From Escherichia coli (GTDB lineage: Bacteria > Pseudomonadota > Gammaproteobacteria > Enterobacterales > Enterobacteriaceae): a stretch of 64,000 nucleotides of DNA. The DNA lies in assembly GCF_045037415.1 (NCBI RefSeq), contig NZ_CP173438.1, one strand, 5' to 3'. This document shows positions 37,832 through 60,898 of this stretch, piece by piece (the first letter of the stretch is position 1; every line of letters begins with the position of its first letter). The position numbers and the translations under genes were made by a program. A model generated the notes under the pieces. The model saw nothing but the letters and a program-made list of their open reading frames with translations. It was not told where the DNA came from and did no database searches.

Positions 37832-38335
37832 TGCCGGATACGGCCTACGGTTCGGCACAGACTTGTAGGCATGATAAGACGCGACAAGCGTCGCATCAGG
37901 CATTATGCGCCGACTGCCGGATGCGGCGTGAACGCCTTATCCGGCCTACGGTTCGGCACAGACTTGTAGGCATGATAAGACGCGTCAGCGTCGCATCAGG
38001 CATTGTGCGCCAACTGCCGGATGCGGCGTGAACGCCTTATCCGGCCTACGGTTCGGCACAGACTTGTAGGCATGATAAGACGCGTCAAGCGTCGCATCAG
38101 GCATTGTGCGCCAACTGCCGGATGCGGCGTGAACGCCTTATCCGGCCTACGGTTCGGCACAAACCTGTAGGCATGATAAGACGCGTCAAGCGTCGCATCA
38201 GGCATTGTGCGCCAACTGCCGGATGCGGCGTGAACGCCTTATCCGGCCTACGGTTCGGCACAAACCTGTAGGCATGATAAGACGCGACAAGCGTCGCATC
38301 AGGCATTATGCGCCGACTGCCGGATGCTGCCTACG
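37832..38335. repeat. BIME/REP tandem array: about 5 copies of a 100-101 bp unit, each built from two inverted REP sequences
   Basis: Direct repetition of gccggatgcggcgtgaacgccttatccggcctacggttcggcaca(g/a)ac(t/c)tgtaggcatgataagacgcg(a/t)caagcgtcgcatcaggcatt(g/a)tgcgcc with period 100-101 bp between convergent yjjW and yjjV. Confidence 0.9.
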
Positions 38336-46138: not shown

Positions 46139-46225
46139 GCGAAGGTGGCGGAATTGGTAGACGCGCTAGCTTCAGGTGTTAGTGTCCTTACGGACGTGGG
46201 GGTTCAAGTCCCCCCCCTCGCACCA
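46139..46225 (+). tRNA. leuQ: tRNA-Leu (anticodon CAG), 87 nt, copy 1
   Basis: gcgaaggtggcggaattggtagacgcg...ttcaagtcccccccctcgcacca; long variable arm; CAG in anticodon loop; encoded CCA. Confidence 0.95.
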
Positions 46226-46253
46226 AAAACCACGTTGATATTGCTCGCACTGG

Positions 46254-46340
46254 GCGAAGGTGGCGGAATTGGTAGACGCGCTAGCTTCAGGTGTTAGTGT
46301 TCTTACGGACGTGGGGGTTCAAGTCCCCCCCCTCGCACCA
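46254..46340 (+). tRNA. leuP: tRNA-Leu (anticodon CAG), 87 nt, copy 2 (one-base variant: agtgttcttacgg vs agtgtccttacgg)
   Basis: Same sequence as copy 1 except a single C to T difference in the variable arm. Confidence 0.95.
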
Positions 46341-46374
46341 AACGAGGCAATATCAAAAAAAGTAAGATGACTGT

Positions 46375-46461
46375 GCGAAGGTGGCGGAATTGGTAGACGC
46401 GCTAGCTTCAGGTGTTAGTGTCCTTACGGACGTGGGGGTTCAAGTCCCCCCCCTCGCACCA
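46375..46461 (+). tRNA. leuV: tRNA-Leu (anticodon CAG), 87 nt, copy 3
   Basis: Identical to copy 1. Confidence 0.95.
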
Positions 46462-57823: not shown

Positions 57824-59185
57824 GTGGAAAAAGAAAATATCACCCTCGATCCGCGTTCTTCATTTACTCCATCTTCGTCGGCAGATATTCCCGTGCCACC
57901 AGATGGATTAGTTCAACGCAGTACCCGAATTAAACGCATTCAAACCACCGCCATGTTGTTATTATTTTTTGCGGCGGTAATCAATTATCTCGACCGCAGT
58001 TCGCTGTCGGTAGCAAATTTAACGATTCGTGAAGAATTGGGATTAAGTGCCACCGAAATCGGCGCTTTGCTCTCCGTGTTTTCACTCGCTTACGGGATTG
58101 CGCAACTTCCTTGCGGCCCACTATTGGATCGTAAAGGCCCGCGCCTGATGTTGGGACTGGGGATGTTCTTCTGGTCACTGTTCCAGGCAATGTCTGGCAT
58201 GGTGCACAGCTTTACGCAGTTCGTGTTGGTGCGTATCGGTATGGGAATTGGTGAAGCGCCGATGAACCCATGCGGTGTAAAAGTCATTAACGACTGGTTC
58301 AACATCAAAGAGCGCGGACGCCCGATGGGCTTCTTCAACGCAGCTTCTACCATTGGCGTTGCCGTAAGCCCACCGATTCTGGCGGCGATGATGCTGGTGA
58401 TGGGCTGGCGCGGGATGTTTATTACCATTGGTGTACTGGGGATTTTTCTCGCCATCGGCTGGTATATGCTCTATCGCAACCGCGAGCACGTAGAACTGAC
58501 TGCCGTTGAACAAGCTTATCTCAATGCAGGTAGCGTCAATGCCCGCCGAGATCCGCTCAGTTTTGCCGAATGGCGCAGCTTGTTCCGTAACCGCACAATG
58601 TGGGGAATGATGCTCGGATTCAGTGGCATCAACTACACTGCGTGGCTGTATCTGGCCTGGCTTCCTGGTTACCTGCAAACAGCCTATAACCTGGATTTAA
58701 AAAGCACAGGGTTGATGGCGGCTATCCCTTTCCTGTTTGGGGCTGCCGGGATGCTGGTCAACGGTTACGTTACTGACTGGCTGGTCAAAGGGGGAATGGC
58801 TCCGATTAAAAGCCGTAAGATCTGCATTATTGCCGGGATGTTCTGTTCTGCCGCCTTTACGCTGGTCGTACCGCAAGCGACAACATCCATGACAGCGGTT
58901 CTGCTGATTGGTATGGCACTGTTCTGTATTCACTTTGCCGGAACATCCTGCTGGGGCTTGATCCACGTCGCAGTTGCTTCTCGCATGACTGCGTCGGTGG
59001 GCAGTATCCAGAACTTTGCCAGCTTCATCTGCGCCTCTTTTGCGCCGATCATTACTGGTTTTATTGTTGATACCACCCACTCATTCCGTCTGGCACTAAT
59101 CATCTGCGGTTGCGTCACCGCAGCGGGGGCACTGGCGTACATCTTCCTGGTTCGTCAGCCGATCAACGACCCACGGAAAGATTAA
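57824..59185 (+). CDS. lgoT: MFS L-galactonate:H+ symporter LgoT, 453 aa, GTG start
   Basis: ORF 57824..59185; GTG preceded by CAGGAG SD; 12-TM MFS protein. Confidence 0.9.
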   Translation: MEKENITLDPRSSFTPSSSADIPVPPDGLVQRSTRIKRIQTTAMLLLFFAAVINYLDRSSLSVANLTIREELGLSATEIGALLSVFSLAYGIAQLPCGPLLDRKGPRLMLGLGMFFWSLFQAMSGMVHSFTQFVLVRIGMGIGEAPMNPCGVKVINDWFNIKERGRPMGFFNAASTIGVAVSPPILAAMMLVMGWRGMFITIGVLGIFLAIGWYMLYRNREHVELTAVEQAYLNAGSVNARRDPLSFAEWRSLFRNRTMWGMMLGFSGINYTAWLYLAWLPGYLQTAYNLDLKSTGLMAAIPFLFGAAGMLVNGYVTDWLVKGGMAPIKSRKICIIAGMFCSAAFTLVVPQATTSMTAVLLIGMALFCIHFAGTSCWGLIHVAVASRMTASVGSIQNFASFICASFAPIITGFIVDTTHSFRLALIICGCVTAAGALAYIFLVRQPINDPRKD

Positions 59186-59233: not shown

Positions 59234-60898
59234 TTAAAACGTTTCCCAGTTCTCACCGCTATCTGCCACGGCCATTTTACGCGGCGCAGCTGGCATCACG
59301 GTTTTTACCACAGCCGATGTTTCACGCTGCTGTTGCTGCTGTTGCTGAATCCGGAACACTGCCACTGCTTCGGTCAGGCGACTGGCCTGCTCTTCCAGCG
59401 CGGCGGCGGCGGCGGCAGATTCTTCCACCAGCGCGGCGTTCTGTTGAGTTACCCGGTCCATCTCAGCAACCGCTAAGCCAACCTGATCGATACCACGGCT
59501 CTGCTCATCAGAAGCAGAAGCAATTTCGCCCATAATGTCCGTCACGCGGGTCACAGCACTGACAATCTCCGCCATTGTTTCCCCGGCGCTTTCGACCAGC
59601 GTAGAGCCAACATCCACTTTCCCCACCGAGTCTTCAATCAGGCTTTTAATTTCACGAGCCGCCTGGGCGCTACGCTGGGCCAGATTACGCACTTCTCCCG
59701 CAACCACCGCAAAACCACGTCCTTGCTCACCCGCACGCGCTGCTTCAACCGCCGCGTTCAAAGCCAGAATATTGGTCTGGAAGGCAATGCCGTCAATTAC
59801 GCTGATAATATCGGCGATTTTCTGCGAACTGGTGGAGATATCACGCATAGTCTGCACCACGTTATCTACCACTTTGCCGCCGCGTTGCGCCGTTTCAGAA
59901 GCACTTAACGCCAGGTGGCTGGCCTGGCGCGCATTCTCGGCGTTCTGTTTCACCGTTGCGGTCAGTTGCTCCATGCTGGCTGCCGTCTCTTCCAGCGAAG
60001 CAGCCTGTTGCTCGGTGCGCGAAGAGAGATCGTTATTGCCGGTAGCGATTTCGCTGGCACCGCTATAGATGGCATTGGCCCCGTTGCGCACATCACCGAC
60101 GGTACGCATCAGCTCTCCCTGCATATGGCGCAAACTCTCTGCCAGTTGCCCCATCTCATTAGAGCCATCCACCTCAATCGGTTTCACCAGATCGCCGCCT
60201 GCAATATGACGAATGCTGTCAATCAGGCGATTCATTGGCGCTACCAGCGAGGCTTTAATACCGAACCAGACGGCGAAGATGACCGCCAGTACGACGATCA
60301 TCACGCCCACCAGAATCCACATCGCCTGGCTGTAGGAGGCATTGTTATCGCTGACGGCGATATCATGGAGCCGATCGTTTTGTTCCATGTAAGCCACATA
60401 CTGCTTCTCGAAACCGTCCTGATATCCCTGAGTCGGCTGATCAAAGAACTCGTTGATTTTGCCTGCACCTAACAGTTGGATCAGCTCCGCCAGCGCATTG
60501 TGATAAATATCGTAATTACGTTTGATCTCTGCCGCTGCGGCGGTGCTCTGACGCGGGTCACGCGGCAACGCTTCGTAATCCGCCCAGTTTTTTTCCGCCT
60601 GTTTCAGCGAAATACTGGCACTCTGCATCAGCTCAGCAACGGTTGAACCGCTACCAATATTATTCTGATCCATCATGTAGCGGATACCCGCGCGGTTGAG
60701 GGTGTTACGCGTCTGCAACAACGCGACCCAGCTGCCATTCAGCGTGGATTGCTGCTGGCGAATGGTTTGTAAAACAGTGAAATTTTCTTTGTCATTCTTT
60801 AAGGCATTAAAGAACAGACCGCCTGATGTCAGTTGTAAAAGGCCAAAAACGGCCAAAACCAGCAGTAAGCTGGTCACAATTTTGATACGTTTTAACAT
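59234..60898 (-). CDS. tsr: Methyl-accepting chemotaxis protein I (serine sensor) Tsr, 554 aa, C-terminal NWETF
   Basis: ORF 59234..60898; MCP signalling domain, methylation sites, C-terminal pentapeptide NWETF; 7-residue polyQ tract before the tether. Confidence 0.95.

Follow-up and report, generated by a model that had tools for sequence, protein, structure and literature searches.

An in-frame 9-nt tandem repeat with copy-number polymorphism in the tether-coding region of the Escherichia coli serine chemoreceptor gene tsr

Introduction

In Escherichia coli K-12, CheR and CheB-P bind the C-terminal pentapeptide of the chemoreceptors Tsr and Tar, and this tethering enhances both methylation and demethylation, as described in the literature. 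Published surveys of chemoreceptors reported pentapeptide linkers of 29–91 residues in which sequence conservation is absent. In Tsr, the tethering point was placed at R516 and the tether was counted from I517 onward, so that the tether of the K-12 protein comprises 30 residues (PMC10561060). When the Tar tether was set to 22, 29, 34, or 46 aa in the same study, the peak of the CheR position moved by 0.128 ± 0.048 nm per residue, and a difference was detected upon a 5-residue deletion in the Tar tether. Moreover, the shorter tether of Tsr, relative to that of Tar, was argued in that study to match the positions of the methylation sites.

Here, we analyzed tsr within a 64-kb stretch of E. coli DNA (hereafter, the window), in which the gene carries two copies of a 9-nt unit encoding part of a glutamine run. 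The closest described protein is K-12 Tsr (551 aa; sequence of PDB ID: 6s1k), which shares with the window protein its btsT-tsr-lgoT neighborhood, its domains, its NWETF end, and the last 149 residues up to the tract, all identical. It differs in having one unit (Q4, 30-aa tether) rather than two (Q7, 33-aa tether), and in its tail, where T532 and E545 stand in place of M535 and G548 of the window protein, respectively. The Af1503 HAMP-Tsr chimera (PDB ID: 3zx6) has a Q7 tail ending in SGENWETF, as in the window, although it is an engineered fusion protein and carries T in place of both M535 and A537. The engineered Tar tethers (PMC10561060) likewise differ in the length of the unstructured segment that links the helical bundle to NWETF; however, they are artificial changes of 5–12 residues near the pentapeptide, whereas the Tsr alleles are natural and differ in 3-residue steps at the bundle-proximal end of the tether. 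The locus also resembles bacterial in-frame coding variable-number tandem repeats (VNTRs, minisatellite-like) in its head-to-tail arrangement, whole-unit differences between strains, and preserved frame, but it differs from them in its very low copy number (1–4), short unit, and seemingly lineage-stable rather than hypermutable behavior.

Results and Discussion

The tsr gene of the window and its glutamine tract

The open reading frame at 59234–60898 (minus strand; 554 aa plus stop) is tsr, the gene for the serine chemoreceptor (MCP-I). It was 100% identical to the annotated tsr of many E. coli genomes, and its product, which ends in SGENWETF, was identical to the public-database E. coli methyl-accepting chemotaxis protein P0001, with the Pfam domains PF02203 (TarH), PF00672 (HAMP), and PF00015 (MCPsignal). 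The best 120 protein matches to full Tsr were all from E. coli or Shigella, were 96–100% identical, and all contained these three domains. The 12 kb around tsr showed 100% identity to many complete E. coli chromosomes, annotated as opgB-btsT-tsr-lgoT-lgoD, and the final 491 alignable nt of the gene were identical to those of the ST131 strain EC958.

Within this frame, the minus strand from 59347 to 59327 reads cag caa cag cag caa cag cag, encoding Q518–Q524 between att (I517) and cgt (R525), exactly where the original prediction had located a Gln7 tract. In terms of the repeat unit, which is defined by the allele series described below, the tract consists of copy 1 of CAGCAACAG (59339–59347, minus strand), a second copy of the same sequence (59330–59338, minus strand), which the alignment showed to be absent from K-12, UTI89, and strain 54, and a trailing partial unit CAG (59327–59329, minus strand) that the allele alignments showed to be common to all alleles. 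TRF reported the repeat at 59326–59347 with a period of 9, 2.4 copies, 100% matches, and a score of 44. A CAA at every third codon breaks up the CAG tract, and a pure CAG trinucleotide (polyQ) expansion was ruled out by these CAA interruptions together with the 9-nt steps between alleles.

The order of the codons might nevertheless be accidental, with a Gln-rich stretch showing 9-nt periodicity by chance and without any repeat dynamics. Given seven Gln codons and E. coli codon usage, we estimated that such periodic CAG/CAA order arises in ~11% of cases, so that the codon pattern alone is weak evidence of a repeat. Moreover, orthologues already possess a Gln-rich IQQEQQ motif at the tract position, and further short repeats of two copies, with comparable TRF scores, are scattered through the window. 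Against a chance origin, the tract was the sole perfect tandem-periodic stretch of ≥21 nt (periods 4–12) in the 64-kb window, compared with a mean of 0.04 in 100 dinucleotide-preserving shuffles, of which 4 contained any such stretch. The chance reading was refuted by the allele series itself, because Q4, Q7, Q10, and Q13 follow one another in exact 9-nt steps with a constant unit sequence, and we regard its remaining probability as practically negligible. The status of the tract as a true repeat thus rests on the population allele data, not on the CAG/CAA pattern alone.

Position of the tract in the tether

The C-terminal tether comprises the 33 residues I517–E549 (59252–59350, minus strand) when its start is placed according to PMC10561060, in agreement with low pLDDT and low conservation, and it is followed by the NWETF pentapeptide (59237–59251, minus strand), whose role is known from the literature. 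R516 is the last residue of the solved Tsr model 8c5v, alignment with the 1qu7 chain breaks off inside the tract, and Q4 is seen in 6s1k, a chain of the K-12 protein. We used an AF2 monomer model, built on an alignment of 81 sequences and of low confidence (mean pLDDT 66), for the helix/disorder boundary only; in this model, the last helix ends at residue 522, and pLDDT is <50 for residues 522–554. Across the 81 orthologues, the linker columns were variable save for R540–K541, while W, E, and F of the pentapeptide were invariant and N and T nearly so. The frame thus ends in a C-terminal xWxxF pentapeptide (NWETF) preceded by an unstructured, poorly conserved linker whose 33 residues fall within the characteristic length of about 30–35. 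Taken together, the ends of the solved structures, the AF2 model, and the published tether definition place the Gln tract as the first segment of the tether, at the helix/disorder boundary, and thus upstream of the NWETF docking pentapeptide, as the original prediction stated.

The R540–K541 pair (about 59276–59281, minus strand) was near-invariant within the otherwise variable tether, with R in 79/81 and K in 80/81 Enterobacteriaceae Tsr sequences. This pair agrees with the conserved positive central segment described in linkers (bioRxiv 10.1101/2024.03.07.583918).

Allele series across complete E. coli genomes

We surveyed the tract in complete E. coli genomes with one query per allele, each consisting of the tract together with 30 nt of flanking sequence on its left and 20 nt on its right, and with E-value cut-offs chosen to admit full-length matches only; among the matches listed, all were full-length save one 96% match for the 2-unit query. 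The tsr 3' end was present in 5382/5426 genomes. One unit (Q4, 30-residue tether) was found in 1209 genomes, the 2-unit length (Q7, 33 residues) in 4055, three units (Q10, 36 residues) in 59, and four units (Q13, 39 residues) in 3, leaving 56/5382 genomes outside the four allele counts. The count of 4055 takes in point variants of the same length: 3645 of the 2-unit genomes matched the 39-nt core exactly and 404 did so with one mismatch, and QQQQQHQ and QQQQQQH occurred among the best 120 Tsr protein matches. Comparison of the 4055 matches with the core counts limits alleles of Q6 or Q8 type, adjoining Q7, to ≤6 genomes. Because a length outside the series is therefore possible in ≤62/5382 genomes (6 + 56), 3-nt steps are rare at best. 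Three of the matches to the tsr 3' end were on plasmid-labeled records, and one genome had two copies.

These values are database frequencies, rich in laboratory strains and outbreak clones, and are not those of natural populations. Of the genomes matched by the Q4 query, 1029 were exact and 180 carried the flank mismatch of the UTI89 type, and several of the 25 Q4 matches listed were K-12, B, or other laboratory-derived strains; hence, Q4 probably has a frequency of less than 22% in nature. The 2-unit length was spread across O157, ST131, O111, O145, and many other groups. Q10 and Q13 occurred in particular lineages, including LF82 and NRG 857C, and also in isolates from rodents, dogs, and sheep; LF82 has Q10, and RM14723 and A13 have four units (Q13).

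Alignment of the tsr 3' end from eight strains resolved the same series at nucleotide level. The tract was CAGCAACAG-CAG (Q4) in K-12 MG1655, UTI89, and strain 54, (CAGCAACAG)x2-CAG (Q7) in the window, O157:H7 F8797, A10, and 500111, and (CAGCAACAG)x3-CAG (Q10) in R12, and all length differences at this site were exact 9-nt units. Every allele retrieved and read encoded full-length Tsr with an NWETF end. The tract is an in-frame coding tandem repeat with VNTR-like copy-number polymorphism, consisting of perfect head-to-tail copies and whole-unit alleles.

Several parts of the original prediction were borne out by these data. It had put the K-12 reference at 551 aa with a shorter Q run, and MG1655 tsr is 1656 nt long with CAG CAA CAG CAG (Q4); reference alleles are therefore not uniformly Q7 when their Gln codons are counted. 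Its view of the pattern as a tandem duplication of a 9-nt unit agrees with the 9-nt steps, which set the tract apart from a simple trinucleotide repeat, and the survey of tract length that it called for showed copy number to vary between strains over Q4, Q7, Q10, and Q13 in the 5382 genomes. In contrast, the unusual expansion relative to the reference that it implied did not hold, because the Q7 length is the major allele, present in about 75% of complete genomes. The window carries this major allele, and the short form of K-12 (551 aa, Q4) is in the minority.

A strain-specific expansion, in which Q7 arose recently from Q4 by duplication of one unit and the window tsr is unusual, would account for the Q4 tract of the 551-aa K-12 protein and for DNA that resembles a clean duplication. 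However, the Q7 length is found in ~75% of genomes from many lineages, the 12-kb identity around tsr is shared with many sequenced strains, and the Q7 tail appears even in PDB entry 3zx6. A recent, strain-specific origin of Q7 was ruled out by this prevalence together with the identity to many strains, and we consider the expansion reading as a whole very improbable, including in light of the family comparison below.

Other classes of explanation were also rejected. An assembly artefact was ruled out, since each allele occurs in many independent complete genomes. A phase-variable contingency locus was ruled out by the preserved frame, the 1–4 copies, and the full-length Tsr encoded by the alleles read. 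A10, retrieved as a 298-nt match, was rejected as a Q6 allele because the triplet that it lacks belongs to the GCC (Ala) run farther upstream and not to the Gln tract. A literature search for tsr repeat polymorphism or VNTRs found nothing relevant in the library searched, and a prior description may exist. The alleles themselves are already public records, and the receptor, the tether, and short in-frame repeat polymorphism are all of known kinds.

Family comparison and ancestral state

To place the alleles in the wider family, we compared the Tsr orthologues of 80 Enterobacteriaceae species, taking one genome per species, from Citrobacter, Enterobacter, Salmonella, Leclercia, Kluyvera, Buttiauxella, and other genera. 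Variation in Tsr length among them was confined to the tether. Measured from VF[R/H] to the pentapeptide, the tether comprised 33 residues in 49/80 species (the mode), 32 residues in 14, 34 in 9, 35 in 3, 30 in 2, and 31, 36, and 48 in 1 species each. The window tether, at 33 residues, is therefore at the family mode, and K-12, at 30, is at the low extreme of the orthologue range.

The orthologue sequence corresponding to the tract was I-Q-Q-[E/D/T/A]-Q-Q-[K/R]-x-[R/H]-[E/D], which aligned with the Q7 allele without gaps. None of the 12 orthologues whose DNA was inspected had a perfect 9-nt repeat at this position, and a comparable Gln run was found in no orthologue protein of the 80 other species. 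The two nearest outgroups, an Escherichia sp. and a divergent genome labeled "E. coli," encode Tsr of 554 aa with ~94% protein identity and read QQTQQRQH and QQAQQRQH at the tract, respectively. The Q7 tract differed from these outgroups at 7/24 nt; the corresponding divergence was 24% over the remainder of the linker and 11–12% gene-wide.

The simplest reading of these comparisons would be that the 2-unit length is ancestral, that K-12 arose by a 9-nt contraction, and that Q10 and Q13 are expansions; the Q4 tract of K-12 is more likely such a contraction than the ancestral state. The family mode and the gap-free alignment with 80 orthologues also count against a strain-specific expansion of Q7. 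The local divergence of 7/24 nt does leave room for a deep contraction and re-duplication within E. coli, and because of this divergence it is possible that the tract passed through a Q4 stage at the base of the species before being duplicated again.

Recurrence and mechanism of copy-number change

To see how alleles are distributed over haplotypes, we compared 491 aligned nt of tsr. UTI89 (Q4) differed by 1 SNP from FDAARGOS_1371 (Q7) and by 12 SNPs from K-12 (Q4), and LF82 (Q10) differed by 3 SNPs from RM14723 and A13 (Q13). The presence of Q4 on at least two diverged haplotypes indicates that copy number changed at least twice or was transferred by recombination. Diverged backgrounds with equal copy number, and near-identical ones with different copy number, fit slippage and fit short-tract recombination equally. 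The replication slippage proposed by the original prediction was thus upheld as to the allele pattern, which is that expected from repeated gain and loss of units, but not as the sole mechanism, since short-tract recombination between lineages accounts for the pattern just as well.

Our explanation of the locus is as follows. The (CAGCAACAG)n + CAG sequence at the tsr 3' end encodes a poly-glutamine run opening the unstructured tether, which connects the cytoplasmic helical bundle with NWETF, the docking site of CheR and CheB. Copy number would most likely be altered by slipped-strand mispairing or unequal exchange between direct repeats of 9–12 nt. A unit of 9 nt leaves the reading frame intact in every case, so that the length of the tether alone is altered. 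Any functional effect is probably small: the tethered CheR and CheB would reach slightly different positions along the receptor. We put the probability of this explanation as a whole, with n = 2 as the majority allele carried here, at roughly 85%.

Expected functional effect

When the displacement per residue reported for Tar is applied to Tsr, one 9-nt unit (3 residues) would displace the tethered enzyme by about 0.4 nm, against an overall scale of ~10 nm. An influence of tether length on adaptation, as raised in the original prediction, is plausible in principle for a 3-residue change but is predicted from the published slopes to be small. Since Gln is uncharged, the charge pattern described for linkers is unaltered by copy number. 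The effect of 3 residues need not be zero, because the 5-residue deletion in Tar gave a detectable difference. Therefore, a strong phenotype of copy number is not expected, and a subtle one is possible.

One could go further and regard the series of 30-, 33-, 36-, and 39-residue tethers as a tuning device, in which lineage-wise selection on copy number sets tether length and thereby the kinetics or precision of adaptation, each 9-nt step measurably moving the sites at which tethered CheR and CheB act, so that lineages would differ in their adaptation to serine, AI-2, and other Tsr signals. Tar tether length measurably alters CheR positioning and adaptation (PMC10561060), copy number has changed on several backgrounds, and Q10 and Q13 mark particular lineages (LF82 and NRG 857C) and the rodent, dog, and sheep isolates. 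These points are offset by the predicted shift of just ~0.4 nm per step, by the tolerance of the family for tethers of 30–36 residues and of surveyed receptors for linkers of 29–91 residues without sequence conservation, by the apparent stability of the alleles within lineages, and by a copy number (1–4) too low for high mutability. We consider selective tuning improbable. If it were true, K-12-based models of Tsr adaptation would describe an atypical short-tether variant.

Under the reading preferred here, of an in-frame repeat with a small effect, the polymorphism matters little in itself: the gene, like the tether and the docking peptide, is textbook material, and in most E. coli strains the Q7 protein is annotated as the standard Tsr. 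It bears on the use of K-12 Tsr in quantitative chemotaxis work, because this protein has a 30-residue tether, shorter than the usual 33 of E. coli and the Enterobacteriaceae, and the argument on Tsr and Tar tether lengths in PMC10561060 rests on the K-12 allele only. In addition, the natural Q4/Q7/Q10/Q13 series provides a minimal-perturbation set for tether-length models of adaptation.

Other observations in and around tsr

Upstream of the tract, a (GCC)5-GCG run at 59399–59416 (minus strand; TRF period 3, 5.7 copies) encodes the Ala6 run A495–A500, which sits between E493 and E502. We take E493 and E502 to be methylation sites by K-12 numbering. A10 lacks one GCC of this run and encodes Ala5 in a 553-aa Tsr; this one-residue deletion is in the helical bundle and not in the tether. 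In strain 500111, a 33-nt in-frame deletion of tsr, corresponding to window 59406–59438 (minus strand) and bounded by the 11-nt direct repeat CGCCGCGCTGG, removes about 11 residues (around 488–498), including E493, and looks like another direct-repeat slippage deletion.

The gene adjoining the tsr 3' end (window 57824–59185, plus strand) was strain-dependent in the nine loci compared. It is lgoT (MFS transporter) in the window, K-12, O157, and EC958, and a TRAP transporter large permease gene in UTI89, LF82, NC101, R12, and others; because the neighboring gene differs between strains, the tsr stop codon lies beside a variable-region junction. In A10 and 500111, lgoT is an annotated pseudogene with an internal stop.

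Elsewhere in the window, three tandem tRNA-Leu(CAG) genes at 46139–46461 (plus strand) were also picked up by TRF, as a repeat with a 121-nt period, and a 101-nt unit occurs 4.8 times at 37841–38327 with 97% identity and a TRF score of 897. The latter unit presumably contains a REP/BIME-like palindromic sequence.
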